The notes beneath the pieces were generated by a model that worked only from the letters and a program-made list of their open reading frames with translations, ran no database searches and was not told where the DNA came from. The translations under genes and the position numbers were made by a program. 64,000 bases of DNA from Candidatus Krumholzibacteriia bacterium (lineage in GTDB: Bacteria > Krumholzibacteriota > Krumholzibacteriia > LZORAL124-64-63). Where the stretch lies: positions 3,192 through 67,191 of the forward strand of contig JAWKQQ010000022.1 of assembly GCA_041390065.1 (NCBI GenBank), read 5' to 3'. Shown here one piece after another: positions 9,147 through 61,141 of this stretch (positions are counted from its first letter, which is position 1; each line of letters opens with the position of its first letter).

Positions 9147-10532
9147 ATGAGCAAGATCGAGTCCGACGCCTTCGTGTTCTTCGGGGCCACCGGGGACCTC
9201 GCCTACAAGAAGATCTTCCCCGCCCTGTACGCCATGGTCGGGCGCGGCAGCCTCACCGTGCCGGTGATCGGCGTGGCCCGCGGCGAGGGCGGCCTCGAAC
9301 AGTTGCAGGCGCGCGCGCGGGCGAGCGTCGGCGAGCAGGGCCCCGTCGACGAGGGCGTGTTCGACCGGTTGATGGCGCTGCTGCAGTACGTCAACGGCGA
9401 CTACAGCGACCCCGACACGTTCAAGCGCCTGCGGGTGGCGCTGGGCGACGCCCGCCACCCTCTGCACTACCTGGCGATCCCGCCCAGCATGTTCGGCGAG
9501 GTGGTCGGACACCTCGGCGCCGCCGGCTGCGCCGCCGGCGGTCGCGTGGTGAACGAGAAGCCCTTCGGCCGCGACCTGGCCGGAGCCCGGGAGCTGAACG
9601 ACCAGCTGCACCGGGTGTTTCCGGAGGAGTCGATCTTCCGCATCGACCACTTCCTGGGCAAGAGCGCGGTGCAGAACATCCTGCACTTCCGCTTCGCGAA
9701 CACGTTCCTGGAGCCGATCTGGAACCGCAACTACGTCGAGAGCGTGCAGATCACCATGGCCGAGAGCTTCGGGGTGCAGGGCCGCGGCAAGTTCTACGAG
9801 GAGGCCGGAGCCGTCCGCGACGTGCTGCAGAACCACCTCCTGCAGATGGTGGCCTACCTCGCGATGGAGGCGCCGGCCATGCAGTACCCCGAGGGCATCC
9901 GCGACGAGACGGCCAAGGTGCTGCGGGCCATCGTACCGCTGGATCCGCAGAACCTGGTGCGGGGCCAGTTCAACGGCTACCGGGCGGAGGCGGGCGTGGC
10001 GCCCGATTCCCACGTGGAGACCTTCGCGGCGGTGCGGCTGGGCATCGATTCCTGGCGCTGGGCCGACGTGCCGTTCCTCATCCGCACGGGCAAGTGCATG
10101 CCGACGACCGTGACCGAGGTCCAGGTGACCCTCAAGCGTCCGCCCATGGCCCGGCTCACCGCCGGCAAGGGCAACCGGATCCGGTTCCGGCTCAGCTCGC
10201 CGATCATGCTGGGCATCGAGGCCCGGGTGAAGGCCGGCGGCGAGGGCGCGGATTCCCAGATCCAGGAGCTGCTCGCCGAGTACCACCCGGGCGCGGCCAG
10301 CCTCGGTGACTACGAGCGGCTGCTCACCGACGCCATGCGTGGCGAGGCCACCCTGTTCGCGCGGCAGGACGCCGTGGAGCTGGCCTGGGAGATCGTCGAT
10401 CCGATCCTGGGCGACGTCGTGCCCGTGCATCCATACGATCCCGGTTCCTGGGGCCCGGATGCGGCCGATGCGATGGCCGCCGCGGTCGGTGGCTGGCACC
10501 ACCCGGGTGACGCCAACCGGCCCTGCTCCTGA
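9147..10532 (+). CDS. zwf: Glucose-6-phosphate dehydrogenase
   Basis: Track ORF of 461 aa. [35 protein letters not shown] and LQNHLLQM are present. Confidence 0.95.
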
Positions 10533-10555
10533 ACGAAGACCTGGAGGCGAGCAAG

Positions 10556-12199
<1,644 letters not shown>

Positions 12200-14516: not shown

Positions 14517-15661
14517 ATGCACGATCGGCAGCAGACCCACTTCGCGCCGGCCGAGCGCAAGTCACCCGACGCTCTCCGTCGTGATGTCGCCGCCGTGGCC
14601 GCCAGCCCGGTCGTCGAGGCCATGCTGCAGGCATGCGGCGGGCTGGTGGCCGTCCTCAACGTCGAGCGGCAGGTGGTCGCCCTCAACCATGCGCTGCTCG
14701 ACACGCTCGGCGTGCAGGATCCGGCGCGGTGCTCGGCCTCCGGCTGGGCGAAGCGCTGCAGTGCATCCATCGCGACGACGTGGCGTCCGGCTGCGGTTGC
14801 AGCGAGGTCTGCCGCACCTGCGGGGCGGCGATCGCCATCGTGGCGGCCCTCGACCGCGGGCGGTCGCAGGAGCAGGACTGCCACGTCAGCGCCGTACGTG
14901 ACGGACAGACGCTCGACCTCACCTTCCGCGTCAAAGCCGTCCCCATCCATCTCGCGGGCCAGGATTTCGTGCTGGTGTTCCTGCAGGACGTCACCTTGAA
15001 CCGGCTGCAGGCCGAACTGTCGCGGGTCTTCTTCCACGATGTCGCCAACCTGGTACAGGCGCTGCAGGGCGCCTGCGACATGTTGCCGGACGCGAGCCCC
15101 GGCGAGCGTGCGGTGCTCACCAAGCGGGCCGGCTCCCTGGTGCGGCGGCTGGCCCGAGAGATCACGATCCAGCGCGCGCTGGCCGACACCGACGGCACGA
15201 CCATTCCCGTGCACATGACGACGCTCGCCGCCGTCGCCGTGCTCGACGAGGTGCGCCTGCGGTTCGCCGACCACCCGCTGGCGTTCGGCAAGATCCTTGC
15301 CGTGACGCCGCCGGACGCCGATTGGCACGTGGTCAGCGACCGCTCGCTGCTCGTGCGGGTTCTGGGCAACATGGTGGCCAACGCCCTGGAGGCCACCCGT
15401 CGCGGTGGGACCGTGCACCTGTGGTGCCAGCGGACGGGCGGCCGGATCCGGTTCTGCGTCCACAACGACGGCGCCATGCCCCGCGACGTCGCCTTGCGCG
15501 TCTTCCAGCGGCGCTTCACCACCAAGGACGGGCTCGGCCGCGGCCTGGGGACGTTCGCCATGAAGCTGCTGGGGGAGCGCCATCTCGGCGGGACGGTGGA
15601 TTTCGAGTCGGATCCAACGACGGGGACGGTCTTCCGGATCGCGTTGCCGTCCGGCGGCTAG
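14517..15661 (+). CDS. Cytoplasmic sensor histidine kinase with N-terminal Cys-cluster sensor, frame broken once near 14726
   Basis: The N-terminus is in the 13719 frame (MHDRQQTHFAPAERKSPDALRR...VVALNHALLDTLGVQDPA). It continues in track ORF 14633..15661 (VLGLRLGEALQCIHRDDVASGCGCSEVCRTCGAAIAIV ... H-box FFHDVANLVQAL ... N-box LGNMVANALEAT ... G-boxes DGLGRGLG, GGTVDFESD). Confidence 0.8.
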
Positions 15662-15666
15662 CCGGC

Positions 15667-16056
15667 TCAGAAATCGAGGTCGCCGTCGCGTCGCTCGACC
15701 CCGAGCCATCGGTACGCGGGCTCGGCGCTCGTGAAGATCTCCACCGTGATGCCGTCCGGCAGCCAGTTCTTCCACAGCAGCAGGATGGCCGTGGGGTGCG
15801 GATCGACCACGATCTCGGCGTGGCGGGCGCCGGCGTACTCGTCTTCCGGGAGGTCCGCCTCGTAGGCCCTGAGGGTCTCGATGTCGAAATCGAACCGGGC
15901 GCGCCGGAAGTCGGTCAGCGTGTTGGCCACCCGGCGCGGGACTCCGGCCCGGCGGCGTTCCTCGCGCAGGTCCTTGATGTCCTCGATGCCCACGTGGCCC
16001 TCGCCGATGTGGATCAGCAGGTCGCGTTCGACGTCGTAGCGAAAGCGGATGGGCAT
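15667..16056 (-). CDS. Small conserved hypothetical protein, paralog A (possible STAS/SpoIIAA-like fold)
   Basis: This is the last 129 codons of track ORF 15667..18105, with ATG at 16056. MPIRFRYDVERDLLIHIGEGHV...DPHPTAILLLWKNWLP...AYRWLGVERRDGDLDF. It is about 60 percent identical, by hand alignment, to ORF 18715..19104. Confidence 0.7.
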   Translation of the reverse strand: MPIRFRYDVERDLLIHIGEGHVGIEDIKDLREERRRAGVPRRVANTLTDFRRARFDFDIETLRAYEADLPEDEYAGARHAEIVVDPHPTAILLLWKNWLPDGITVEIFTSAEPAYRWLGVERRDGDLDF

Positions 16057-16305
16057 GGCACACTCCCGGAATCCGTTCCAAGAACCACGCCGCGGCGCCT
16101 CCCGGACGCCGGCGATTCGCCTGGTCATGGTGGGGGAAGCCCGTCGGCGATGCAACCCTGGAATTGGGCGGTACGCGAGCCCGATGCTCGGGCGCCCGCG
16201 CCCCCACCGTGGTATCTTCTGGGCCCGGGGCCTGGGCCGTTGCCGCCGGACCCGCCGCGGCTCGCCTGGTTGTGGCGAGACGTTCGCTTCCCTGAAGGAG
16301 TACAG

Positions 16306-18687
16306 GTGACCTCGATCCCGACGAAGCTGGTCTCTGCCCGGGGCTGGAGCCGCAGGTTGCCGATGACGTGCGTCCTGGCGACCGGGATCGTGGTCGTCGC
16401 CATCCTGAACGGCACGCTGCGCCACCCCTTGCCGGCGGAGAGTCTCGAGCGCTGGGGTTTCGGCCTGCGCGACCTGATCCACGGTGACCTGTGGCGGTTG
16501 GCCACGGCGCCCTGGCTGATCCTGCGGCCGGTCATGGCCCTGACGATCGTGGCCTCCGTGCTCTTCTGCTGTGGGATCGCGGAGTGGCTGGCCGGAACGC
16601 GCCGGGCGTTGATCGCGGCTGTCCTCGGACACGTCGCCGGCTACGTGCTGGCGCCCCTGCTTCTGACCGGACTGGGAGCGGTCGGCGTGGACGCCGCGGC
16701 CCGCATGGCCGCCATGCGGGATGTCGGCGCCTCGAACGCCGTGTTCGGCGCCGCGGGGCTGGCGGTGGCCTGGCTGCCGCGGCTCGTCCGCCGGCGCGCG
16801 CTGCTGGCGGTGAGCGGCTTCCTGGTCGTGGCCCTGGTGGTCTCCTCGCGGCGCTGGGACGTCGAGCACGCGATCGCGTTTCCCATGGGGTATGCGTGCG
16901 GTCTGGCGATGCTGCGCGTGAGCGGCGCGGTCGGCAGCGCGACCAGGCGGCGGCCGGAACGGCATCAGCGACCGCTGCTGATCGCCTGGGTGGTGACGAT
17001 CGCCGGCCTGGTGAACGTGCTGAGCGCGTTGTCCCACCACCACGCCCCGTCGTTGATCCAGCTCGAAGCGTGGCTCCCGATCGTGGCCGGCCAGCCGCCG
17101 CGGATGCTCGTCCTGGCGAGCGGTCTGGCCTTGCTCTTGCTCGCGCCCGCCATCGCGCGGCGTCGGCGAGCCGCCTGGACCGTCGCGGTGTTGCTGCTGG
17201 TGGGCGGTTTCCTCCTGCACCTGCCCTGGCAGGCGCATCGGATCGAGGCCCTGCTGACGCTCGGCCAGCTCGGGGTCTTGCTGATCTGGGCTCCGGTCTT
17301 CTCGGTGCCCTCCGACCTGGCCGCCGTGCGGCGCGGTCGTCTGCTGCTGCTGGCGGTCCTGATCGCATTGCCCGTGCTCGGCGTGCCGGGTGTCTGGCTG
17401 ACGCGATCCGGCTTCGCCGGCGCGGTCGACCTCGAGAGCGCCGTGCGGGAAGTGGGGGCGAGCCTCGTCTTCGCCCAGCATGAACGTCTGGTGCCGGAGA
17501 GCCTGCTCGCGCGCGGCGTCGTGGTGGCGATTCCCCTGGTCGGCTGGGCCGGCGTGCTGGCGGCGCTCGCGCTGATCCTGAAGGGCGTCTCGGCCCGGCC
17601 GCGGTCCCGGTCGGACGAGGAACGGGCCCGCAGCCTGGTGATGGAATACGGTGAGACCGGCACCGCCTACATGACGCTCTGGCCAGGCAACTCGTTCGCG
17701 TTCGACCCGCGCCAGCGCAGCTTCGTCGCCTACCGGGTCGCCTCCGAGGTCGCCGTGGTGCTCGGCGAGCCGGTCGGCGCTCCGGACGCCCGCGCGGGGA
17801 TGATCGTCGACTTCGCCGCGTTCGCGTCGGCGCACGGCTGGGACCACGTCTTCTACGCCGTGACGGCAGCCAGTCGGGACATGTTCATGGCCGCGGGCTA
17901 CGACCTCATCCAGATCGGCGAGGAGGCCGTGATCCCCCTTGGCCAGCTGGCCTTCAAGGGCAAGGAATGGCAGGACATCCGCTCCGCGGTCAATCGGGCC
18001 GGGCGCGAGGGCCTCAGCTTCGCCTTCTACGAGGGCGGCTCCGTTCCGGCGGCGATCCGTCGTCAGTTCGACGAGATCAGCGCCGAATGGGAAGCGAGCC
18101 AGCACCTGCCGCCCATGGAGTTCACGCTCGGTCGGACGGCCGACGTGGATGATCCGGAGGTCTACGTCGCGGCCGCGGTCGACGCCACCGGTCGCGTCCA
18201 GGCCTTCGTGGACTGGCTGCCGGTTCCGGCGCGACGAGGCTGGGTCATCGATCTGATGCGGCGGCGCGACGATGCCCTAGGTGGAATCATGGACTTCCTC
18301 ATCGGCATGTCGCTGCTCGCCTTCCAGGAACGTGGCCAGAGCCAGGCGAGCCTGGCCACCGCCCCGCTGGCCGCCCGGGAGCGTGAAGGCACCGAATCAC
18401 CGCTGGCCCGTCTGCTCGACTTCGTCTACCGGAACTTCGACGCCTTCTACCATTTCCAGACGCTCTTCCGGTTCAAGCAGAAGTTCCAGCCGCGTTGGGA
18501 GCCCATCTACCTCGCCTACCGTGGCGAGGACGCCCTGCTGCGGGCGACCCAGGCGATCGCGCGGGCGCATCTGCCGGACCTGAATCTCGTGACGATCGCC
18601 CGGGCCGTGAGCCGGGCCGTCGGCGAGCGATGGCAACCGGAGGTCGGGAAGCCCGGGGGCACCGACGCGGACCGCGCGCCGTCCTGA
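16306..18687 (+). CDS. Membrane fusion protein: rhomboid-like N-terminal domain, polytopic middle, and aminoacyl-phosphatidylglycerol synthase C-terminal domain (MprF/DUF2156-like)
   Basis: In frame with track ORF 15322..18687. GTG at 16306 lies 5 nt after GAAGGAG. Rhomboid-like motifs: DLWRLATAPW, GASNAVFGAAG, EHAIAFPMGYACG. The C-terminus is colinear with MprF synthase domains (VAYRVASEVAVVLGEPVG ... FKGKEWQDIRSAVNR ... WVIDLMRRR ... FYHFQTLFRFKQKFQPRWEPIYLAY). Confidence 0.75.
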   Translation: MTSIPTKLVSARGWSRRLPMTCVLATGIVVVAILNGTLRHPLPAESLERWGFGLRDLIHGDLWRLATAPWLILRPVMALTIVASVLFCCGIAEWLAGTRRALIAAVLGHVAGYVLAPLLLTGLGAVGVDAAARMAAMRDVGASNAVFGAAGLAVAWLPRLVRRRALLAVSGFLVVALVVSSRRWDVEHAIAFPMGYACGLAMLRVSGAVGSATRRRPERHQRPLLIAWVVTIAGLVNVLSALSHHHAPSLIQLEAWLPIVAGQPPRMLVLASGLALLLLAPAIARRRRAAWTVAVLLLVGGFLLHLPWQAHRIEALLTLGQLGVLLIWAPVFSVPSDLAAVRRGRLLLLAVLIALPVLGVPGVWLTRSGFAGAVDLESAVREVGASLVFAQHERLVPESLLARGVVVAIPLVGWAGVLAALALILKGVSARPRSRSDEERARSLVMEYGETGTAYMTLWPGNSFAFDPRQRSFVAYRVASEVAVVLGEPVGAPDARAGMIVDFAAFASAHGWDHVFYAVTAASRDMFMAAGYDLIQIGEEAVIPLGQLAFKGKEWQDIRSAVNRAGREGLSFAFYEGGSVPAAIRRQFDEISAEWEASQHLPPMEFTLGRTADVDDPEVYVAAAVDATGRVQAFVDWLPVPARRGWVIDLMRRRDDALGGIMDFLIGMSLLAFQERGQSQASLATAPLAAREREGTESPLARLLDFVYRNFDAFYHFQTLFRFKQKFQPRWEPIYLAYRGEDALLRATQAIARAHLPDLNLVTIARAVSRAVGERWQPEVGKPGGTDADRAPS

Positions 18688-26439: not shown

Positions 26440-27741
26440 TCAGCTGTTCTTCACGAAATCCTGCAGCCACTTGATGGTCACGGACTTCGGGCGCTCGATG
26501 GGCGCCATCATGGCCCGGTTCCAGACCAGCTGGGCGCACATGCCCATCACGCGCGAGACCGAGAACATCACCGTGTAGTAGGGGAACTCGGTCATGCCGT
26601 AGTGGTAGAGCAGGGCGCCGCTGGCCGCATCCACGTTGGGCCAGGGGTTCTTGGCCTTGCCCTGCTCCTTGAGCACCTCGGGCACCACCTTGAAGACGCG
26701 GTCGACGATCTGCACGATCTCGTCGTCCGGGAAGTGCTTCATGCCGAAGTCCTTCAGGGCGGTGAAGCGCGGGTCGGTGATGCGCAGCACGGCGTGGCCG
26801 TAGCCCGGGATCACGCGGCCGGAGTTGAGGGTCTCCCAGGCCACCTCGCGCAGCTGCTCCTCGGTGGGCAGGCCGCCGAACTGCTCGCGCACCTGCAGCA
26901 CCCAGTTCAGGCACTCCTGGTTGGCCAGGCCGTGCAGCGGGCCGGAGAGCCCGTTGAGGCCGGCGGACACGCTGTAGAAGGCGTCGCTCAGGGCCGAACC
27001 TACCAGCGAGCAGGTGTGCGCCGACACGTTGCCGCCCTCGTGGTCGCAATGCAGCACGAGGTAGAGGCGGATCATGTCGGCGGCCTCGGGGTTCTTCTGG
27101 CTCAGGCCGAGCATGTGGGCGAAGTTCTGCGAGTAGTCGTACTCCGGCTTGGGCTCGATCCGGGGGCCCTTGTTGAAACGCTTGCGGTAGATGGCCGCCG
27201 CCAGGGTGGACATGCGGGCCTGCAGGGTCAGGCAGTCCTCGAGCATGGGCTTCCAGAACTCGTCCTTCGCCATGCCCGCGTTGTAGGCCTCGACGAACTT
27301 GCTCTCGCCCTGCATGCTCAGGATCGCGGTGTCCAGCATGCACATGGGGTGCGAGTCGGCCGGCATGGCGTCGAGCACCTGCCACACGTACTGCGGCACC
27401 ACCGCGCGCTTGGCGAATTCCGTGCGCAGGTGCTCGTGGGCCGCCTTGTCGGGGAGCGCGCCGGTGCAGAGCATGTAGAAGATGTCCTCGGCGGTCCGGT
27501 CGGTGAGCTGTGCGAGCGGGGTGCCGCGGATCAGCAGGCCCTTCTCCGGCGGGACCTCGCTGGTGTCGCAGACCATGCTCTTGACGCCGCGGGCTCCACC
27601 CATGGCCTGGGCCACGGTCACCTGGCTGATGACCTTGTCACCGTGATTCTTGGCCAGTTCGGTCAGCTGACCCCGCCAGACGGGGATCTGCTGCTCCAGA
27701 CGTTCAAAGAGATTCGCCATGCCTCGTGACTCCCTCGTCAT
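26440..27741 (-). CDS. gltA: Citrate synthase
   Basis: Track ORF of 433 aa. GGARGVKSMVCDTS, HCDHEGGNVSAHT and GYGHAVLRITDPR are present. The start may instead be the second ATG at 27720 (MANLFERLE), which has a GAGGGA upstream. Confidence 0.95.
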   Translation of the reverse strand: MTRESRGMANLFERLEQQIPVWRGQLTELAKNHGDKVISQVTVAQAMGGARGVKSMVCDTSEVPPEKGLLIRGTPLAQLTDRTAEDIFYMLCTGALPDKAAHEHLRTEFAKRAVVPQYVWQVLDAMPADSHPMCMLDTAILSMQGESKFVEAYNAGMAKDEFWKPMLEDCLTLQARMSTLAAAIYRKRFNKGPRIEPKPEYDYSQNFAHMLGLSQKNPEAADMIRLYLVLHCDHEGGNVSAHTCSLVGSALSDAFYSVSAGLNGLSGPLHGLANQECLNWVLQVREQFGGLPTEEQLREVAWETLNSGRVIPGYGHAVLRITDPRFTALKDFGMKHFPDDEIVQIVDRVFKVVPEVLKEQGKAKNPWPNVDAASGALLYHYGMTEFPYYTVMFSVSRVMGMCAQLVWNRAMMAPIERPKSVTIKWLQDFVKNS

Positions 27742-31149: not shown

Positions 31150-31350
31150 CTGTCCGTCCGGCGTCGTGTCCGGCCGGGCACACAACAACGGCGGCTCGAT
31201 GATCAGCGGAAGCCGGTGTGATTCCGGCGCGGCCCCGCCACTGTGAGCGGCGACGAACCCCGCACCATGCCACTGAGGACCCTCTCCCGGCTGGAGACGA
31301 CCTCGGGAAGGCGCGGCCAGTAGGACGACCCGCGAGCCAGGAGACCGGTC
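31150..31350 (+). promoter_or_regulatory. Cobalamin (B12) riboswitch
   Basis: The core GGAAGCCGGTGTGATTCCGGCGCGGCCCCGCCACTGTGA (B12 box GCCACTG) is followed by GCCACTG...GGGAAGG...GAGCCAGGAGACC. It lies directly upstream of a TonB-dependent receptor gene. Confidence 0.85.
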
Positions 31351-31390: not shown

Positions 31391-33517
31391 GTGTCGGTCC
31401 AGGGGACCGGGAGCCTCGCGCACCCTCGGGTGGCGCGTATCTTCCGACCGCATCGTCGTTTCCGGTTGCCGGCAAGCTCGCTCGCGTTCGCGTTCGCGCT
31501 CGTGGGCCTGGTCCGCGCCGTGCCCGCCGGGGCGGACCAGGCCCCGATCGCCGATCCGCCGCTCATGGCCGAGGCCGCCGCCGCCACCGTGGTGCTCGAC
31601 TCCATGGTGGTGCATGGCCGCGGCGTGGCCGAGCGCTTCTTCCCGATCGCGCCCGGCGTGGTGACGGTGGTCGAGCTGGACGACGAACGCGGCGGTGCGG
31701 ACCTCGGCGAACTGCTGGCCCGCGTGGCCGGCCTGCAGGTGCGTCGCTACGGCGGCCTCGGCGCCCAGGCGGTGCCCTCGATCCGCGGCTCGAGCGGCGC
31801 CCAGGTGCAGGTGCTGGTGGACGGCCTGCCGCTGGCCGATGCCCAGAACGGTGCCGTCGACATCTCGCTCTTGCCGCTCGAACGTTACGCCACCGCCGAG
31901 ATCCACCGCGGCCTCGTGCCGGTCGGCTTCGGCGGCATCGGCGGCGCCGGCGCCGTCGACCTGCGGACCCGGCCCGATGCCCATGGCACGAGCGTGCGGC
32001 TGTTCACCGGCAGCTTCGGCGACCTGGGCGGCCGCGTGTCCCACGGTCTGCGGTCGCGAGGCGGCCACCGGCGCCTGCTCGTGCTGGCCCACGGCCGCCG
32101 GCTCGACAACCGCTACGGGTTCACCCCGCGCATCCCCGCCGCCCAGGTCGACCTGTATCCCGACACCACCTGGACCCGCGCCAACGCCGACCTCGAGGAA
32201 TGGGGCTGGCTGGCGAGCGGCGAGCTGGAGGGTGCGCCGGGCCTCCTGCGCGCCTCGGTGGGGAGCTTCCGGCGCGACGGCGGCCGCCCCGGACCGTTCA
32301 ACCTTCCGTCGCCCCACGCCCGCGTGCGCCACGAGCGTCTGGACGCCCGCCTGGGGGCCGTCACGCGTGATCGCGACTGGACGGCGGACCTGAGCCTGGC
32401 GCGGGATCGGGGCCAGCTCATCGACACCGCCCGCGAGGTGGGGCACGACCCGGCCGGCGTCAACACGAGCGAGTCCGACGACGTGCTGGCGCGTGCGATC
32501 TGGTCGCCCTTGTGGCGCCTCGGCGCTGCCGACCTGGGCGTGACCGCCGGCGCCGAAGGCCGCCTGCAGTGGTACCGCGAATCCATCGCGGGCGACGCGC
32601 AGCCCCGGCGCAATCGCCGCAGCGTCGGCGCGTTCGCGAGCGCCAGCGTCGACCTGCCGGCCTGGCGGCTGGGTCTGACCCCGCAGTGGCGCTGGCAGCG
32701 CGTGCGCGACGACTTCCCGCCGGTGCCGAACCTGCCCTGGCTGCCGGAGGAACTGGGCGTGGTGCACCGGCAGGACGCGGTCTCGCCCGCGGTGAACGCC
32801 ACCGTCGCCATCCTGCCCGAGTCGCTCATCCTGCAGGCCCACTGGCACCACAGCGTGCGCCAGCCCACCTGGGTCGAACTGTTCGGTCAGCCCGGCGGCC
32901 TGGTGGGCAACCGGGAGCTCGTGCCCGAGGAGATCACCGGCCGCGACGTGGGCCTGCGCTGGACCCTGCCCGGCCGCAACGGCGTCCTGCGCGCCACCTG
33001 GTTCAGCCAGGTCACCGAGAAGACCATCCTCTGGTACGTCAGCGGCCTGGGACAGAGCAAGCCGTACAACGTCGGCCGGACCCGAGCCGCGGGCGTGGAG
33101 CTGGAGGGCGCGTGCACCCATCGGGCCGCCGAAGGCTACGTGGCGGCCACCTACCAGGGCGCCCATCACGGGCACGGCCAGGATCCCGTCTACCACGGCA
33201 AGCAGCTGCCCTTCCTCAGCGACTGGACCGTGTTCGCGGATCTCGGCCTGCGCCTGGACGCCTGGCGACCCGGCCTGCGTCTGCGTCACGAATCCGCGTC
33301 GTTCACCGATCTGTTCAACGACCCCGACGCCCGCGTGGCGCCCCGCACCAGCCTGGACCTGTCCCTGGCCCGCACCTTCGAGGGCGGCGTCTGGGGCGAC
33401 GGGCGGCGCGCCACCGTCACCGCCGAGGCCATCAACGTCACCGACCGGCAGCTCCACGACGTCGAAGGCTACCCCTTGCCGGGTCGGAGCCTGCGGCTGT
33501 CGCTGCACTGGCAATGA
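31391..33517 (+). CDS. btuB: TonB-dependent outer-membrane receptor (BtuB-like, riboswitch-controlled)
   Basis: Track ORF of 708 aa with GTG start after GGGAGAGG. Signal peptide present. Plug motifs: LARVAGLQVRRYGGLGAQAVPSIRGSSGAQVQVLVDGLPL. The C-terminal barrel ends in LRLSLHWQ. Confidence 0.85.
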   Translation: MSVQGTGSLAHPRVARIFRPHRRFRLPASSLAFAFALVGLVRAVPAGADQAPIADPPLMAEAAAATVVLDSMVVHGRGVAERFFPIAPGVVTVVELDDERGGADLGELLARVAGLQVRRYGGLGAQAVPSIRGSSGAQVQVLVDGLPLADAQNGAVDISLLPLERYATAEIHRGLVPVGFGGIGGAGAVDLRTRPDAHGTSVRLFTGSFGDLGGRVSHGLRSRGGHRRLLVLAHGRRLDNRYGFTPRIPAAQVDLYPDTTWTRANADLEEWGWLASGELEGAPGLLRASVGSFRRDGGRPGPFNLPSPHARVRHERLDARLGAVTRDRDWTADLSLARDRGQLIDTAREVGHDPAGVNTSESDDVLARAIWSPLWRLGAADLGVTAGAEGRLQWYRESIAGDAQPRRNRRSVGAFASASVDLPAWRLGLTPQWRWQRVRDDFPPVPNLPWLPEELGVVHRQDAVSPAVNATVAILPESLILQAHWHHSVRQPTWVELFGQPGGLVGNRELVPEEITGRDVGLRWTLPGRNGVLRATWFSQVTEKTILWYVSGLGQSKPYNVGRTRAAGVELEGACTHRAAEGYVAATYQGAHHGHGQDPVYHGKQLPFLSDWTVFADLGLRLDAWRPGLRLRHESASFTDLFNDPDARVAPRTSLDLSLARTFEGGVWGDGRRATVTAEAINVTDRQLHDVEGYPLPGRSLRLSLHWQ

Positions 33518-33543
33518 CCCGAATCCGCCACGGAGGCACCAGC

Positions 33544-34938
33544 ATGCGCACCATCCTATTCGTTCTCCTGGCCCTGATGCTCGCCGTCGGCGCGCGCGCC
33601 CAGTCGCAGGGCGCCGTCATCGCCACCGACTACGCCACCACCGCCTACGTCGCGGGCCTCGGCCTGGCCGCGCCCTGGGCCGTGGGGCCGGTGCCCGGCG
33701 AGCCGGTCTACAACGACGCCGTGGCACGTTGGCACGCGGGGCTGCTCTACGTCGTCAACCGCGGGGGCGCCGACAACGTCCAGGTGCTCGATCCCGCGCA
33801 GGGCTTCGACACCGTGCGCCAGTTCAGCCTGGGCCTCGGGCGCAACCTGCAGGACATCGGCTTCGCCACGGACGGCACGGCCTACGTCAGCTGCTACGAC
33901 ACGGCCGAGTTGCTCCACATCGACCCCGCGACGGGCCAGCTGCTGCAGGTCATCTCGACGGCCGGGTTCGCCGACGCGGACGGGCTGCCGGAGACCGGCT
34001 GGCTGCTCGTGCATGACGGCCGCCTGTTCCTGAACTGCCAGCGCCTGGACCGCGACGGCTGGTACGCCCCGGTGGGCGACAGCTACCTGCTGGTGCTCGA
34101 CACGGCCACCAACCAGTGGCTCGACGCCGATCCCGCGACGCCGGGCACGCAGGGGATCCGCCTGGGCGCCACCGACCCGATCACGCCCATCCAGCGTCGC
34201 GATGGCCGGCTGTACGTCGGCTGCGTCGGCTACTACGGCGTCAACGACGGCGGCGTGGCCGTGGTCGACCCCGTGACGCTCGCCCCGCTGGGCCTGGAGA
34301 TCACCGAGGCCGTCCTCGGCGGCGACCTCGTGTCCCTGGCCGTCACCGGCGAGACGCGCCACCTGATCGTGTCGGACGGCTCGTGGGTGACCCACGTCAT
34401 GGAATACCTGCCCGGACACATGCCCACCACCGTGGCCTCGGGCGCCGCCTACGACCACGCCGACCTGGCCTGGGACGGCGGCTTCCAGTAACTTCGTGGC
34501 CGACCGGCGCCTGGAGTGCGAGCGGCATCCGCGTGTACGACGTCGAGACAGGACAGGAGCTCACCAGCGGCCCCATCGCGACCGGCCTGCCGCCCGCCCT
34601 GGTGGTGCTGCCCGCCGCCGAGGGCGCCGTGGATGTCGAGACGCCGTCGCTGGGGGGGCTGTCCCTGGCTGCGCCGTGGCCCAACCCGGCCAATCCCACC
34701 ACGCAGGTGGCGTTCACCCGCCGCGCCGCGCGAGGCGGTCGAGCTGCGGCTCGTGGACCTGCACGGGGCCGCCTGGTCCGCCGCGCCAGGCTCGAGGCCG
34801 GCCTTGCGGGGGCGGGGCCGCTGGACCTTCGACGGCCGCGACGATCAGAGGGCCGCACGGTGGCGTCGGGTGTGTACCGCTGCGTGGTGCAGTCAGCGGG
34901 GAGGGTTCGCGGCGCGCAGCCTGACGGTCGTTCGCTAG
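33544..34938 (+). CDS. Secreted beta-propeller-like repeat protein with FlgD-Ig/T9SS-like C-terminal domain; an in-frame stop at 34489 and frame breaks lie in the last 450 nt
   Basis: The ATG at 33544 follows GGAGG. Signal peptide MRTILFVLLALMLAVGARAQ. Blade-like repeats are present (LYVVNRGGADNVQVLDP, AYVSCYDTAELLHIDPATGQ, SYLLVLDTATNQ, VAVVDPVT). After the TAA at 34489 the protein plausibly continues in other frames (GIRVYDVETGQELTSGP...LAAPWPNPANPTTQVAF | VELRLVDLHG | RLVRRARLEAGLAGAG | RWTFDGRDD | GRTVASGVYRCVVQS...LTVVR*). Confidence 0.6.
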
Positions 34939-35176
34939 GTCGTCCGGAGATGATCCGTGCCGCGTGTGATTCCGGCGTCATGGATGCGTCTCTCCCCACG
35001 ACGCCGGCCATCCGCCGATACGTCGCGGCTGGTGCGCCAAATCATCCATCGGATGGACCACCATAGCCACCATGCCGCCCCATGCCGGCCCGGAGCATCC
35101 CGCCACGCCCGATTCTGGTTGCTCCCTCGCCGCACTGCGCTAGTATTCAGCCGGTCGCCACCCTGGAGGAACGACC

Positions 35177-35750
35177 GTGCCCGTATCTATACCCGCACCG
35201 GAGACCGCGGCGAGACTGGCCTCGTCGATGGGTCGCGCACCCTCAAGTCCGACCCTCGCGTCGATGCCTACGGGGATGTCGACGAGCTCAACAGCGTGAT
35301 CGGTGGCGCTCGCTGCCCTGCCCGCCGACGTGGACGGCCTGCGGGCCGACCTCGGCGCATCCGGTCAGATCTGTTCGGCTCGGCGCCCTGCTGGCCGACC
35401 CGCCGCGGTGCGAGGCGCTGGTGGCCGGTGCGGCGGACGCGCTGCCCCTGGATGGCGGCGCCCTCGAGCCGGTGATCGATCGGCTCGGTGAAACACTGCC
35501 GCCTTTACGTGCGTTCATCCTGCCCGGTGGCATCCGGGTGCGGCGGCCTGCGTCGCGCACAGTCTACCGCCGCGTCGAGCGCCACGTGGTGGCGCTGCGG
35601 GCAGCTCAGGTGGCCATTCCCGACCCCGTGGTGGTGTACCTGAATCGCCTCAGCGACCTGCTCTTCGTCGCCGCCCGGCACGTCAACCGGGCCGCCGGCC
35701 GCGACGACGTGCTCTGGCCCGGACGCCGGGATCGCAAACCCGCGGAGTAG
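35177..35750 (+). pseudogene. pduO: PduO-type ATP:cob(I)alamin adenosyltransferase, several frame breaks
   Basis: [41 protein letters not shown] | [16 protein letters not shown] | IRSDLFG | LGALLADP...LRAFILPGG...VYRRVERHVVAL...YLNRLSDLLFVAARHVN. The GTG at 35177 after GGAGGA is out of frame by one base with the following codons. Confidence 0.8.
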
Positions 35751-37348: not shown

Positions 37349-37450
37349 GGGGTCGGGTGGATGTCCGGGGTGCGACTCCGCAGCAGCCGGGCGGCCCGTC
37401 CAGGGCCGCCTGGCGCGAGGACCGAGCACCCCGGACATCTACCCGACCCC
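37349..37450 (-). repeat. Structured 3-prime element, copy 2 (inverted): a 25-bp outer stem enclosing the same core
   Basis: 37349-37373 pairs with 37426-37450 (one G-T pair). The reverse complement of 37376-37424 is CGGTCCTCGCG CCAGGCGGCCC TGGAC GGGCCGCCCGG CTGCTGCGGAG, which matches 40 of 49 positions of the copy 1 core by hand alignment. The outer stem overlaps the last codons and the stop of the CheA-like gene. Confidence 0.75.
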
Positions 37451-39556
37451 GTCCTTGTAGGCGAAGATCGTCGTGGGGATGGAGCGATGCTCGCCGAGGT
37501 GATAGAGCGGGGCGAGGCGCTCCAGCAGGGCGTCCACCTCGGGCTCCCGGATGGGCGTGGCCCAGAGGATCTTGACCTCGCGGCCGCAGCGGCCCTGCTC
37601 GATGTCGGCAACGCTCGGCAGGGTGGCGAGGATCTTGCCCGTCTTGCCGACGCGGCGCAGCAGCAGATAGGCGGCCAGGAAGGCGGGCTGGCGGCCCGGA
37701 TCGAACTCGAGGTAGGTCTCGTAGGTCCGCTCGCCGCGCTTGAGGGCGCTGAGGACCTGCAGCTGGGCGGTCGGCGTGAGGTCGAAGGGCTGGCGCACGA
37801 GGGCGGCGTAGTCCAGGCCGTCCTCGGCGGCCACGGTGTCGCTGTCGGTGAGCTCCTGCAGCTGGGCGAGCAGCTCGGTCGGGGGCGTGTCCGGCGCCGC
37901 GGGCAGGGTGGCGGCGGAGGCGATCAGGTAGCTGACGCCGTCGAGCAGCAGGTCCATGCGCTCGGAAGTCATCGCGAGCCGCCCCGCGCGCAGGTAGTCG
38001 AGCGCCGTCTCGAGCTGATGGGCGAAGGCGGCCTGGAGGTCGGCCTCGAGCACCGAGAAGTGGCCCTTGGCGGCGTGCAGGCGGCGGAAGGCGCGGTTCA
38101 GCTCGTCCTGCAGGTCGGGATTCTGTTCGAGGGTGAGCAGGGCGTCCTGGAGCTCGGCGAGACTCGCGGCGAGCTCATGGTGCAGGCTGCCCACGTCGTC
38201 GCCGAGGGCGCTGGCGTTGCGACGGCGCCCGACGTCGTCGGCGGATCCGGCGTCGGGGGCCTGCGGCGGCGAACTCGGGCGGGCCGCCTCCGTGGCCGCG
38301 GCCACCAGCGCCTGCGCCGTGGCGGCCTCCGGTTGGATCCCCATCGCCGCGGCGACCAGGGTGTCGACGTCGATGGTCAAGCCCAGCTTGCCGCCGGTGA
38401 AGACGGCGGTGCCGGCGACGGCGGCGTGATGACGGAGCCCCGCGTCGAGGGGGATGTTGACCAGCTTCTGGGGCCCCAGGAATTCGCTCACGATGAAGGC
38501 CACGTCGCCGGCGCGACCGTGCAGGATGATGACGGGCAGCGTGCCCGCCGGCGTGGTCGCGGCTGGCTCGCCGAGCACGGTCTCGAGGTCGTGCAGCGGG
38601 ATGATCCGGCCCTGGTAGGTGATGTGGCGGCCTCGATCGAAGGCGGTGTTCACGTCGGCGGGGTCGAGGCCGAGGTTGGCGATCACCTTGTCGATCGGCA
38701 GGGCGTAGAGATTGCTGGCGGCCCTCAAGGTCAGGGCATCGATGATGTTCACGGCGCGCAGCTTGGGCACCCGCAAGGTGAAACTGGAACCCTGGCCCGG
38801 GGCGGTGTCGAGGCTGAGCTCGCCGTCGAACTCATCCAGCACCGTGTGCACGAGGTCCAGGCCGACGCCCCGGCCGCTGGTGCCGGTCACCTGGTCGGCC
38901 GTGGTCAGGCCCGGGCGGCAGATCAGCTCGAGCAAAGGCCGCGTATCGGCGTCGGGAACTGCCAGCTTCCGGGCGGCCTGGCGGACGGCGGCCTCGTCGA
39001 TGCCGGCTCCGTCGTCGGCTACGGTGATGACGGTCTCGTGTTCACTGTCGCTGGCGCTGATGCTGACCCGGCCTTGCAGGGGCTTGCCGGCCCGTTTGCG
39101 ATCGATGGGGCTCTCGATCCCGTGGTCGATCGCGTTGCGCAGCAGATGCAGCAGCGGGTCGACGAGGTGCTCGGCCAGGGCCTTGTCGATGAGCACGTCC
39201 TCGCCCTTGAGCACGATCTCCGCGTCGCGGCCGAGGTTCCGGCACAGGTCGCGGGCGGGCCGTCGCAGCAAGCGGTAGGTCTCGTCGATCTCCACCAGGC
39301 GGATGGCCATGACCAGGTCGTGGAGCTCCTGGCTGATGCGCCGTGTGGACTGGTTGCAGGTCTTGATCAGATGCAGGCTCGCGCTGTCGGTGGTCGTGCC
39401 GGCCGCGCCATGGCCGCCGGCCCGGCGTTCGAGGTCCTGCAGGTTGGCCGCCGTGATGATCACCTCGCCGGCGAGGGAGAGGAGCGTGTCCAGATGGGCG
39501 ATGCGGACCTGCATGCGGTCGAGCGTGCGCGTCTGCTGCGTGGCGATCTCAGTCAT
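37439..39556 (-). CDS. cheA: CheA-like histidine kinase with circularly permuted domain order (P3 dimerization, P4 HATPase, P5 CheW-like, P1 HPt, then a C-terminal tail)
   Basis: Track ORF of 705 aa. VRIAHLDTLLSLAGEVII (P3); HLLRNAIDHG, DDGAGID, GRGVGLD (P4); ALPIDKVI...VAFIVSEFLGPQKLV (P5); then LNRAFRRLHAAKGHFSVL (HPt, His494, codon at about 38075-38077). Confidence 0.85.
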   Translation of the reverse strand: MTEIATQQTRTLDRMQVRIAHLDTLLSLAGEVIITAANLQDLERRAGGHGAAGTTTDSASLHLIKTCNQSTRRISQELHDLVMAIRLVEIDETYRLLRRPARDLCRNLGRDAEIVLKGEDVLIDKALAEHLVDPLLHLLRNAIDHGIESPIDRKRAGKPLQGRVSISASDSEHETVITVADDGAGIDEAAVRQAARKLAVPDADTRPLLELICRPGLTTADQVTGTSGRGVGLDLVHTVLDEFDGELSLDTAPGQGSSFTLRVPKLRAVNIIDALTLRAASNLYALPIDKVIANLGLDPADVNTAFDRGRHITYQGRIIPLHDLETVLGEPAATTPAGTLPVIILHGRAGDVAFIVSEFLGPQKLVNIPLDAGLRHHAAVAGTAVFTGGKLGLTIDVDTLVAAAMGIQPEAATAQALVAAATEAARPSSPPQAPDAGSADDVGRRRNASALGDDVGSLHHELAASLAELQDALLTLEQNPDLQDELNRAFRRLHAAKGHFSVLEADLQAAFAHQLETALDYLRAGRLAMTSERMDLLLDGVSYLIASAATLPAAPDTPPTELLAQLQELTDSDTVAAEDGLDYAALVRQPFDLTPTAQLQVLSALKRGERTYETYLEFDPGRQPAFLAAYLLLRRVGKTGKILATLPSVADIEQGRCGREVKILWATPIREPEVDALLERLAPLYHLGEHRSIPTTIFAYKDGVG

Positions 39557-39962
39557 GGCTCAACACCCGTTCGATGATCTGGGCGAGGTCCTCGCGGTTG
39601 AACGGCTTGGGAATGAAGTCGTCGGCACCGAGCTTGAGCACCCGGATCACGCTGCTGGCGTCGCTCAAGGTGGAGACCATCACGAGCGGCGTGCCGTCGT
39701 ACCAGGGGGCTTGCTGCAGTCGCCAGCAGAACTCGAAGCCGTCCATGCTGGGCATCTGGATGTCGCTGAAGATGATCGTGGTGCCGTCGATCGTGGATTC
39801 CAGGGCGAGGAGGGCCTCGCGGCCGTCGTTGTAGGCCTGGACCGCGAGGCCGAGGCCGCTCAGCTCGCGCTCGAAGATGCGCCGCATGGTGGCGCTGTCG
39901 TCGATGACGACCGCCCGGGCGCCGCCGGGCAGGGAGGTCTGCAGGCTCTCGACGTGGCTCAT
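39549..39962 (-). CDS. cheY: CheY-like single-domain response regulator
   Basis: This is the last 137 codons of track ORF 39549..40367, ATG at 39962. It has VVIDDS, FSDIQMPSMDG, MVSTLS and IPKPF. Its stop overlaps the kinase start by 8 nt. Confidence 0.85.
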   Translation of the reverse strand: MSHVESLQTSLPGGARAVVIDDSATMRRIFERELSGLGLAVQAYNDGREALLALESTIDGTTIIFSDIQMPSMDGFEFCWRLQQAPWYDGTPLVMVSTLSDASSVIRVLKLGADDFIPKPFNREDLAQIIERVLSHD

Positions 39963-40063
39963 GGCTCCATCCTTGAGGTCGGGTCCGGTCACCGGGCAGT
40001 CCTGGATATCGGCAGCATACGGCCTGCCTTTAGTCGGCCCGCGCCGTTCCGGAGCAGACGCAA

Positions 40064-40092
40064 GAGGGCCGGAGGCATGGCCTCCGGCCCTC
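40064..40092 (-). terminator. Strong GC hairpin downstream of the ferredoxin gene (terminator or attenuator candidate; no U-tract)
   Basis: GAGGGCCGGAGGC, a 3-nt loop, GCCTCCGGCCCTC (13-bp perfect stem), 22 nt after the ferredoxin stop. It is followed only by TT on the minus strand. Confidence 0.4.
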
Positions 40093-40113
40093 GAGTCTGC
40101 GTGCAGGACGCGA

Positions 40114-40287
40114 CTACTGCATGGTGATGGCCGACTCCGGGCAAACATCCACGCAGGCTTCGCAGTCGGTGCACTCATCCTGATCCACCACGGCCTTGCC
40201 GTCGACGAGGCTGATGCACTCGGTGGGGCAGGTCTCGATGCAGTCTTCGCAACCAGTGCACTTGGCGGGATCCACGAACGCGGGCAT
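40114..40287 (-). CDS. 2x[4Fe-4S] ferredoxin, 57 aa (below the ORF-track length cutoff)
   Basis: Hand translation: MPAFVDPAKCTGCEDCIETCPTECISLVDGKAVVDQDECTDCEACVDVCPESAITMQ*. It has two CxxCxxCxxxCP motifs. The ATG at 40287 is preceded by GAGGAGG. Confidence 0.85.
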   Translation of the reverse strand: MPAFVDPAKCTGCEDCIETCPTECISLVDGKAVVDQDECTDCEACVDVCPESAITMQ

Positions 40288-40343
40288 GAGGTTCCTCCTC
40301 GACTGAAAAACGGTGGCGGCCGCCCCGGCGGCGTCATGGGCGA

Positions 40344-40372
40344 ATAATGGCCCGCTCTCCGGAGCAAGTCAA
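40344..40372 (-). promoter_or_regulatory. Candidate promoter of the ferredoxin gene
   Basis: On the minus strand: TTGACT, a 17-nt spacer, then CATTAT, about 55 nt upstream of the ferredoxin ATG. Identified by eye only. Confidence 0.3.
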
Positions 40373-40425
40373 ATCACAACTCGACGGGACAGCGACTCGG
40401 AACGCCGGCGCGCTGAGGCCGGATA

Positions 40426-59960: not shown

Positions 59961-60662
59961 ATGCCTCAGCTGCCAGCCTCGTCGGCGCCCGTCGGCATCC
60001 TGTTCGATCTCGACGGCACGCTGGTCGATTCGCGGGCCGATCTGGCGGCCGCGGCCAACGCCGTCCGCCGGGCCTGGGGGCGGCCGCCGCTGTCCGATCC
60101 GGTCGTGGCCGGCTACGTCGGCGATGGCGCCCGGGCGCTGCTCACGCGAGTCCTGACGCACGTCGATGATCCGGCCTCGCCGCCGGCCTCGCCCGGCGCC
60201 GAGGTTCTCGACCGCGCGTACGAGGTGTTCCGCGAGCACTACGCGGCCCACCTGCTCGACCGGACCGTCCTCTATCCGGGGATCGCCGATCTGCTCGCCG
60301 CGCTGGCCGGCCGCAGCCTGCTGGTGGTGACCAACAAGCCTCGCGAGTTCACCCTGCCCATCCTGGCGGGCCTCGGCGTGCTCGACCGCTTCGCGGCCGT
60401 GGTCGCCGGGGACGACGTCGTGCGGCGAAAGCCGAATCCCGATCACCTGCGCGCCGCCATCGAGGCGGTGGGACTGCCGGTCGGGTCGTGCGTCATGGTG
60501 GGCGACAGCCCCAACGACGTCGTGGCGGCCCGCAAGCTCGGCATGGCCAGCGTGGCGGTGACCTGGGGGCTGGTGGCGGCCGCCACCCTGCGTGCGGCCG
60601 GGCCCGACCAGGTGGCGACGACGGTGCCGGAGCTGGCGGACGCGCTTCAGGCCTCGGCGTGA
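59961..60662 (+). CDS. gph: HAD-family phosphoglycolate phosphatase-like hydrolase
   Basis: Met13 of track ORF 59925..60662. ILFDLDGTLVDS, VVTNKP and MVGDSPNDVVAARKLG are present. Confidence 0.8.
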   Translation: MPQLPASSAPVGILFDLDGTLVDSRADLAAAANAVRRAWGRPPLSDPVVAGYVGDGARALLTRVLTHVDDPASPPASPGAEVLDRAYEVFREHYAAHLLDRTVLYPGIADLLAALAGRSLLVVTNKPREFTLPILAGLGVLDRFAAVVAGDDVVRRKPNPDHLRAAIEAVGLPVGSCVMVGDSPNDVVAARKLGMASVAVTWGLVAAATLRAAGPDQVATTVPELADALQASA

Positions 60663-61141
60663 GCGCGGGCCTGCGCCAGCAGGCGGGTCAACGTCGCGCC
60701 GACGCCGCGGAGGGTGTAGGGATCGTCGACGTCGGGTTCGGTTCCCGGACGCTCGAAATGGGGACGCTCGTCGTTGAGCCGGCCCCATGCCATGTCCACT
60801 TCCCGCACCAGATCCTCCAGCCATCCCATCGCCTCCAGCCGACCCGGCAACCAGACGGCGAGCAGGCTCGCCGGACGGTCGACATGCGCCTCGAGGAGTT
60901 CGGGGGCAGCTTCGAGATGCCGCAGCAGCACCGTACGGAGCGAGGAATCAGGCGCCTCGAGGTGCTGGCGTAGCCACAGGTCGGCCGCCAGCAGGGCGCG
61001 CTGGATCACCGGCGTGGGGCTCGCGCCGCGCAGGTTGTCGCCGCCGTCACGGCCGGCCAGCGCGCCGGCCAGGCCGGTGCGGCGACCCAACCGGGCTTCC
61101 TGCTCGATCCGGCGTTTCTCGTCGTCGGAGAAGTCGGGCAT
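60647..61141 (-). CDS. Hypothetical protein, 164 aa
   Basis: This is the last 164 codons of track ORF 60647..61669 (MPDFSDDEKRRIEQEARLGRR...). The composition is coding-like but no family was recognised. Its 3-prime end overlaps gph by 16 nt (convergent). Confidence 0.5.
   Translation of the reverse strand: MPDFSDDEKRRIEQEARLGRRTGLAGALAGRDGGDNLRGASPTPVIQRALLAADLWLRQHLEAPDSSLRTVLLRHLEAAPELLEAHVDRPASLLAVWLPGRLEAMGWLEDLVREVDMAWGRLNDERPHFERPGTEPDVDDPYTLRGVGATLTRLLAQARAHAEA

Follow-up and report, generated by a model that had tools for sequence, protein, structure and literature searches.

The 64,000-nt stretch of DNA analysed here (the window) originates from a Candidatus Krumholzibacteriia bacterium (GCA_041390065.1, contig JAWKQQ010000022.1, positions 3,192-67,191). 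On its reverse strand it carries two overlapping genes, a cheY-like gene for a stand-alone receiver and, directly downstream of it, a gene designated here cheA', which encodes a kinase related to the chemotaxis kinase CheA (Table 1). The kinase corresponds to the NCBI protein MEZ4389087.1 from a Candidatus Krumholzibacteriia metagenome-assembled genome (MAG), where it is annotated merely as 'ATP-binding protein'. An initial annotation, made from the sequence alone, had proposed that this locus encodes a single-chain circular permutation of CheA: an uninterrupted open reading frame (ORF) of 705 codons that opens with a dimerization-type helix, continues with the motifs HLLRNAIDHG, DDGAGID and GRGVGLD and a CheW-like domain, and carries only after an Ala/Pro-rich linker (38192-38344, corresponding to residues 405-455) a histidine-containing phosphotransfer (Hpt) domain with His494, followed by about 155 residues resembling the segment that normally follows the P1 domain. 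Each of these elements was recovered in the analysis described below, and the last segment was identified as P2 by sequence as well as by predicted fold.

Analysis of the kinase with Pfam revealed H-kinase_dim at residues 16-85 (2.2e-9), HATPase_c at residues 134-265 (4e-16), CheW at residues 274-403 (1e-12) and Hpt at residues 465-544 (2.6e-6; 28.0 bits against a cutoff of 24.6), each above its curated cutoff. The P2 match at residues 612-678 (1.3e-4) reached 22.4 bits and was slightly below the cutoff of 23; PF07194 is precomputed for most homologs of the kinase. No match to HisKA or REC was obtained within the kinase with Pfam. Just about 15 residues are located N-terminal of P3. The best NCBIfam matches were CheA equivalogs which covered residues 13-402 only, namely CheA_Halo with 286 bits (cutoff 950) and PRK10547 with 189 bits (cutoff 793). 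Such partial matches far under the cutoff are expected of a CheA core without its usual N-terminal part.

A profile built from 22 family members was compared with the sequences in the PDB. It matched the P3P4P5 fragment of CheA (1B3Q) at profile positions 15-401 (7e-79), CheA P1 (1TQG/2LD6) at positions 475-572 (~1e-17) and the P2 domain of T. maritima (1U0S_A) at positions 630-699 (2.5e-3). For the CheW-like domain, 2CH4 was also matched in addition to the entries given in Table 1.

The structure of the full-length kinase was predicted with AlphaFold2 (AF2) using an alignment of 90 sequences, which resulted in a confident model with a mean predicted local distance difference test score (pLDDT) of 85.1. 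In this model P3 forms a helical hairpin (helices 19-49 and 58-86), residues 425-451 within the linker are disordered (pLDDT <50), and a helical bundle at residues 446-550 is followed by a C-terminal alpha/beta domain at residues 610-694. The tether between P5 and P1 proper (residues 409-455) contains 14 Ala and 5 Pro among its 47 residues. Comparison with Foldseek revealed that the full-length model resembles the CheA core structures 6S1K, 3JA6 and 1B3Q (~1e-27) and that its P4 domain aligns with CheA P4 structures with template modelling (TM) scores of 0.8-0.88. A separate AF2 model of residues 440-705 (pLDDT 89.6) matched the chain of 2LP4, which comprises P1-P2 of E. coli CheA; it superimposed on the P2 structure 1U0S_A with a TM score of 0.85 and a root-mean-square deviation of 2.0 Å, and on the CheA P1 structures 1I5N and 1TQG with TM scores of 0.84-0.86.

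The domain order is supported by three independent methods, namely Pfam, the family profile against the PDB and AF2 with Foldseek. Since the C-terminal tail is P2 by sequence and predicted fold, the kinase is an exact rotation of CheA, with the order P3-P4-P5-P1-P2 instead of P1-P2-P3-P4-P5. The compositional features of a CheA (P3 beside P4, the P4 boxes, P5 after P4 and the P1 tetrad) are all found in it, and the canonical N- to C-terminal order is the only one that is not.

Table 1. Coordinates of the permuted kinase gene cheA', its domains and motifs, and the adjoining receiver gene in the window
Feature	Coordinates	Strand	Evidence or remark
cheA' ORF, 705 aa, uninterrupted, P3-P4-P5-tether-P1-P2	37439-39556	-	NCBI MEZ4389087.1
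P3 dimerisation domain, residues 16-85	39302-39511	-	Pfam H-kinase_dim, AF2
P4 ATP-binding kinase domain, residues 87-268	38753-39298	-	Pfam HATPase_c, Foldseek
N box HLLRNAIDHG, residues 137-146	39119-39148	-	
G1 box DDGAGID, residues 181-187	38996-39016	-	
G2 box GRGVGLD, residues 228-234	38855-38875	-	
P5 CheW-like domain, residues 269-408	38333-38752	-	Pfam CheW; 1B3Q/3UR1/4JPB matches
P5-P1 flexible tether, residues 409-455 (47 aa), Ala/Pro/Asp/Ser-rich	38192-38332	-	AF2 disorder and composition
P1 (Hpt) phosphotransfer domain, residues 456-560	37877-38191	-	Pfam, profile, fold
Phospho-acceptor His494	38075-38077	-	with K497, H513 and E516 the complete CheA P1 active-site tetrad
P2 response-regulator docking domain, residues 586-700, extreme C-terminus	37457-37801	-	Pfam, profile, fold
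cheY-like gene for a stand-alone receiver (137 aa), immediately upstream of cheA'	39549-39962	-	Pfam Response_reg 1.9e-23
8-nt overlap ATGACTGA, receiver stop codon / kinase start codon	39549-39556	-	
Sigma-70-like promoter match TTGACT-17-CATTAT	40344-40372	-	consensus match only; weak evidence

Recurrence and conservation of the permuted family

A word-indexed search yielded 1,295 relatives of the window kinase. The best 120 of them, each representing a cluster and drawn from NCBI, JGI, ENA and Logan assemblies, shared 43-100% identity with it, were 686-764 residues long and covered 95-100% of the query, except one (57%). The clusters were labelled as Krumholzibacteria, Eisenbacteria, Planctomycetaceae, Thermoguttaceae and 'Deltaproteobacteria', and members of the family carry generic annotations such as 'ATP-binding protein', 'chemotaxis protein CheW' or 'Hpt domain-containing protein'. 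Among the GTDB species representatives, a scan established 578 relatives. The best 80 were retained, and the loci were classified with hidden Markov models derived from five blocks of the family alignment. Among these best 80, the collinear permuted order was found in at least 41 species representatives. The loci L005-L045, together with those fetched earlier, displayed the order P3-P4-P5-P1-P2 with the sole exception of L042, in which the gene is broken within P5. In the window kinase and in each of the 42 non-redundant family members, P1 and P2 are located C-terminal of P5; the next-closest relatives (L046-L084) have P1 first in 39 of 39 cases.

An exhaustive hmmsearch over 1.84 billion cluster representatives resulted in 25,073 CheA-like proteins at E <= 1e-30. 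Classification of the best 150 yielded 18 permuted proteins (15 of full length), 5 fragments of permuted members and 127 canonical ones. All full-length permuted members scored above all canonical ones within this set, and none of the 150 carried P1 on both sides of the core. The permuted family is thus rare and makes up far less than 0.1% of the sequence diversity of CheA when clustered at 50%, whereby more distant permuted forms may rank below the best 150. Neither the best 150 representatives nor the 80 genomic loci included a split relative or an intermediate form. Two of the permuted proteins deviate in length: in P0140 (830 aa) P5 and P1 are separated by ~190 residues, which may form an extra domain, and P0128 (771 aa) has an insertion of ~60 residues within P5.

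The permuted kinase was found in Krumholzibacteria, Eisenbacteria, Planctomycetota and Sumerlaeota, as well as in one Candidatus Adiutrix MAG. Two subgroups can be distinguished by their identity to the window protein: subgroup A with 43-73%, and subgroup B with 33-35%, the latter comprising Phycisphaerae, Pirellulales, Sedimentisphaerales, Sumerlaeota and the complete 6-Mb chromosome OW818685.1 (L044). In neighbour-joining trees the permuted sequences formed one clade, with bootstrap values of 198/200 for P4-P5 and 142/200 for P1. The single clade in both trees points to one origin and to joint inheritance of the two halves. The permutation arose once and would then have spread among the Planctomycetota and the Krumholzibacteria/Eisenbacteria/Sumerlaeota lineages. 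It could have originated either from a tandem duplication in frame in which both ends were lost or from fission followed by refusion in swapped order. The presence of a family member in the Candidatus Adiutrix MAG hints at horizontal transfer.

The alignment of 90 family members was inspected for catalytic residues. The key residues of the N box (H137, N141), the G1 box (D181, G183, G185) and the G2 box (G228, G230, G232) are invariant, as is His494 within the motif FRRLHAAKG. The residues H494, K497, H513 and E516 align to H48, K51, H67 and E70 of E. coli CheA, and this tetrad is invariant in 42 of 42 permuted and 39 of 39 canonical sequences. The gap between the P5 and P1 envelopes varies in the 42 members from 44 to 82 residues (median ~70) and is of variable sequence, rich in S, A, E, D, T and G; between P1 and P2 there are 21-27 residues. 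Mean pairwise identity within the family is 0.63 for P3, 0.56 for P4, 0.50 for P5, 0.49 for P1 and 0.51 for P2, and P5 contains many invariant positions. With 0.51 against 0.49-0.63 for the other domains, P2 is as constrained as the core, which fits a dedicated docking partner of the predicted P2 domain. For CheA in general, by contrast, the conservation of P2 has been described as far lower than that of the core (PMC10782961), although the permuted family is narrower than the whole of CheA. As judged from this conservation, all parts required for CheA chemistry were shown to be present and under selection.

Gene neighbourhood in the window and in related genomes

The receiver encoded directly upstream of cheA' carries the CheY active site (D21/D22, D67, S/T, F116 and K119 in the alignment to E. 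coli CheY) and is the presumed phosphoryl acceptor. The 8-nt overlap of the two genes, already reported in the initial annotation, is real, and it recurs in related genomes. Of the 42 non-redundant permuted loci, 28 have an orthologous receiver gene immediately upstream in the same orientation (30 if the two duplicates among the 44 loci fetched are counted). In 23 of these 28 related loci, from both subgroups and across phyla, the overlap is exactly 8 nt (ATGnnTGA, once ATGnnTAA), or in 24 of 29 when the window is included. Elsewhere among the 28 there is one overlap of 4 nt, and four Thermoguttaceae loci have gaps of 63-88 nt. The gene arrangement thereby showed a conserved gene pair with predicted translational coupling of receiver and kinase.

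Upstream of the receiver gene, a non-coding gap of 433 nt (39963-40425, -) gave no match to Rfam. The sigma-70-like sequence listed in Table 1 is the single one in this gap (1 found versus 0.1 expected in shuffles) and would imply a 5' leader of ~380 nt. In subgroup B a protein of 313-321 residues is encoded downstream of the permuted kinase on the same strand (L037, L039, L041 and L044, in the last one at 10146-11090 (+), 314 aa). It consists of a C-terminal receiver and an N-terminal region of ~190 residues without a match in Pfam or NCBIfam, and may be the output regulator of this subgroup.

The genes flanking the receiver/kinase pair in the window are non-chemotactic. A TonB-dependent receptor, an ECF sigma/anti-sigma pair and YbjQ are encoded on one side, and MauE/DoxX, a rhodanese, a DUF1573 protein and a K+ channel on the other side. 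A cobalamin riboswitch (31208-31345, +; Rfam RF00174, 88.5 bits) is located directly upstream of the gene for a TonB-dependent receptor (Plug and beta-barrel; 31391-33517, +), which is followed by an ORF of 325 aa without a Pfam match (33514-34491, +). These three elements probably constitute a B12-regulated uptake operon. Further downstream, a PduO-type cob(I)alamin adenosyltransferase (34957-35750, +) is split over two frames: the ORF 34957-35475 matches positions 1-66 of the Pfam family Cob_adeno_trans and the ORF 35082-35750 matches positions 94-170. This frameshift indicates either a pseudogene or an error in the consensus of the MAG.

Some other features of the window were inspected as well. 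A second, small histidine-kinase-like ORF (14729-15661, +; HATPase_c 4.8e-16) overlaps the end of a ROK-family ORF and is the only other weak match to E. coli CheA in the window. ARAGORN predicted a 91-nt 'tRNA-???' with a two-base anticodon (60666-60756, +), which lies within a predicted ORF (60659-60973) and is probably a false positive. At 16-18 kb the AT skew is strongly negative in the region of an ordinary gene for an MprF-like lysyl-phosphatidylglycerol synthase (15796-18687, +), and a dip in GC content at 26-28 kb falls on an ordinary citrate synthase gene (26440-27741, -).

Proposed function and alternative explanations

We consider it probable (about 0.8) that the window protein is a functional CheA-class kinase in which the P1-P2 module was moved from the N- to the C-terminus and which would operate by a CheA-like mechanism. 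The kinase would dimerise via its N-terminal P3 hairpin, and P4 would bind ATP and phosphorylate His494 of P1. A flexible tether of 44-82 residues, attached to the end of P5, would allow P1 to reach the active site, in place of the canonical P2-P3 linker attached to P3. At the free C-terminal end, P2 would dock the CheY-like receiver encoded by the overlapping upstream gene, and the phosphoryl group would be transferred from His494 to Asp67 of this receiver. P5 may still couple the kinase to CheW and to chemoreceptors encoded elsewhere in the genome. A liberated Hpt domain was fully functional in experimental work cited by Berry et al. (2023), and function has likewise been reported for bipartite CheAs (PMC10782961). 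Where P1 is attached is therefore, in principle, not decisive.

In the permuted topology P1, and not P2, is proximal to the core, and the anchor is P5. P5 is the domain that contacts CheW and the receptors in canonical systems. It is conceivable, and we propose this only tentatively, that the permutation is not neutral: it might let the conformation of P5 directly set the access of P1 to the ATP site, switch autophosphorylation between trans and cis, or permit operation free of a receptor array. The minimal cheY-cheA' pair, with no CheW, CheB or CheR beside it, might then represent a distinct, non-adapting signalling module with its own input, conserved in Planctomycetota, Krumholzibacteria, Eisenbacteria and Sumerlaeota.

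Several observations weigh against a CheA-like mechanism of the permuted kinase. The inter-domain arrangement in the AF2 model is unreliable (pTM, the predicted TM score, 0.54), and the reach of P1 to the ATP site is argued from the length of the tether, for which we estimate that ~70 residues would be long enough to span the kinase core. The upstream receiver is absent in a clade of Planctomycetaceae MAGs from termite gut (L015-L017, L020, L021, L026, L028-L031, L033, L034 and L036), including cases in which the sequence available upstream exceeds 1 kb. Moreover, the chemotaxis genes that would be required for a receptor array are not in the vicinity. The window was searched in six frames with phmmer (E <= 1) using E. 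coli CheW, CheR, CheB, CheZ, Tar, Tap and MotAB and a Thermoguttaceae methyl-accepting chemotaxis protein (MCP) as queries. None of the six frames of the window yielded an MCP, CheW, CheR, CheB methylesterase, CheZ or MotAB homolog, which agrees with the initial annotation as far as MCP, CheW, CheB and CheR are concerned, and only the receiver and the kinase were detected. CheW, CheR and CheB were likewise absent from the 534 kb surrounding the 44 permuted loci (0 each), where MCP was found in 5 and the receiver in 30. The 39 canonical loci (471 kb) served as a positive control for the same queries and yielded CheW in 22, CheR in 22, CheB in 29, MCP in 22 and a receiver in 30 of them, so that 22-29 of 39 were recovered per chemotaxis gene. 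Because no CheW, CheR or CheB is encoded near the permuted loci, a coupling to a receptor array is putative.

These neighbourhood data lend some support to a receptor-independent kinase. It would form a soluble two-component pair with the receiver, either constitutive or under a control other than by MCP and CheW, and P5 would have been kept for a structural or novel regulatory role, e.g., positioning of the tethered P1. Besides the contrast between permuted and canonical loci, it is favoured by the location of the nearest canonical relatives in full che operons (e.g., cheR-cheW-cheW-MCP-cheA-cheB-REC), by the receiver being the only conserved neighbour, and by the second, larger receiver protein encoded downstream in subgroup B. 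However, we regard a receptor-independent kinase as unlikely, as the conservation of P5 reported above is expected of a domain that still binds partners. Furthermore, an MCP gene is present within 8 kb of 5 of the 44 permuted loci (4 non-redundant). In two loci, both from Thermoguttaceae, it immediately adjoins the module: in L001 it is divergently oriented, and in L022 it directly precedes the module in the same orientation. It is common for orphan cheA genes to rely on cheW and MCP genes located far away. Most flagellar and chemotaxis genes were reported for at least one Krumholzibacteriota MAG (10.1101/2023.07.10.548433), so the partners may be encoded elsewhere.

The residue His21 (39494-39496, -) in the first helix of P3 was considered as a phosphorylation site. 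It is invariant in subgroup A, whereas canonical CheAs have Lys or Arg at this position. Hybrid kinases carry their Hpt domain at the C-terminus. A phosphorelay of the ArcB/BarA type, in which the C-terminal Hpt would be a downstream relay and His21 the primary site, could thus be envisaged, but it is very improbable. In subgroup B (8 of 42 sequences) the position of His21 is occupied by Ser or Arg, the context EHLDKL of His21 is unlike an H-box, and there is no receiver domain between P5 and Hpt; the Hpt itself is specifically of the CheA P1 type, possesses the complete H/K/H/E tetrad and precedes P2. A regained phospho-site similar to that of a dimerisation and histidine phosphotransfer (DHp) domain was rejected as a feature of the family because of the substitution in subgroup B.

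Finally, an assembly or annotation artefact, namely a chimeric join or a lost stop codon fusing a P3-P4-P5 gene to a separate P1-P2 gene, might be suspected in a MAG-derived window in which another gene is split by a frameshift, and in view of the kinase of L042 that is broken into two ORFs, but it is already refuted because the architecture recurs: the same single collinear ORF is found in at least 120 clusters from four sequence sources and in 41 species representatives, the complete chromosome of L044 among them, and the break in L042 lies within P5 and not in the tether. It was this recurrence of homologs with the same order, and not read mapping, that excluded the mis-join in the linker considered in the initial annotation.

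Comparison with known CheA architectures and significance

The permuted family shares with the canonical CheA of E. coli and T. maritima the five domains, the P1 tetrad, the N, G1 and G2 boxes of P4, the P3 hairpin and a CheY-like partner. It differs in that the domain order is rotated by two positions, with P1-P2 carried on the 44-82-aa tether from the P5 end and P2 placed at the free end, and in that the genes are not surrounded by a che operon. The adaptation enzymes CheB and CheR, typical of the gene clusters of chemosensory systems, are found in 0 of 44 permuted loci. In split CheAs, in which Hpt is encoded by a separate gene of the same operon (R. sphaeroides CheA3/CheA4), P1 likewise need not be attached to the N-terminus of P3 for phosphorylation (PMC10782961), whereas the permuted kinase resides entirely on one polypeptide. 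Fission and refusion starting from such a split state could generate the permuted order.

Hybrid kinases of the ArcB/BarA/TorS type resemble the permuted kinase in having Hpt C-terminal to the catalytic domain. However, they possess a DHp histidine and an intervening receiver and lack P5 and P2, whereas in the permuted kinase the CheA-P1-like Hpt holds the only conserved phospho-acceptor. The multi-Hpt CheAs of systems for type IV pili and alternative cellular functions (Tfp/ACF; ChpA, FrzE-like) are similarly non-canonical, with altered number and placement of Hpt and receiver domains (PMC10782961). In those proteins every Hpt domain precedes P3, and a receiver usually forms the C-terminus; the permuted family, in contrast, has only one Hpt, located behind P5, and lacks a fused receiver.

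The genome-wide survey of CheA proteins from 2023 (Berry et al.) covers forms with missing P2, added receivers, bipartite forms, duplications, fusions and N-terminal receivers (PMC10782961). An Hpt domain after CheW is not mentioned in the text of this survey, the domain orders in its Table S2 being outside that search. Another survey, devoted to architectures with CheW domains, was restricted to the 16 most abundant ones. The term 'circular permutation' in Hamer et al. (2010) refers to the order of genes in operons and not to protein domains. No description of a permuted CheA was found in a full-text literature search, outside of which the architecture tables of MiST and InterPro lay. The class was thus found neither named nor characterised in the literature searched, in line with the initial annotation, to which no description of such a permutation was known. 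Databases certainly contain the architecture under generic names, but it appears to be undescribed.

The permuted CheA is surprising in form and unsurprising in chemistry, which is likely to be conventional. The gene is currently mis- or under-annotated, and architecture-based classifiers which expect Hpt at the N-terminus may wrongly score it as a CheA that is split or truncated. The architecture matters because CheA is the paradigm of a multi-domain signalling kinase, for which the access of P1 to P4 and the gating by receptors are still debated. The re-anchoring of P1-P2 from P3 to P5 is a natural evolutionary experiment that shows which connectivity is dispensable, and the family provides ready-made constructs for studying cis and trans phosphorylation, the dependence on tether length and the control of arrays via P1 mobility. 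For the organisms concerned, cheY-cheA' represents a compact and deeply conserved module in poorly studied phyla.

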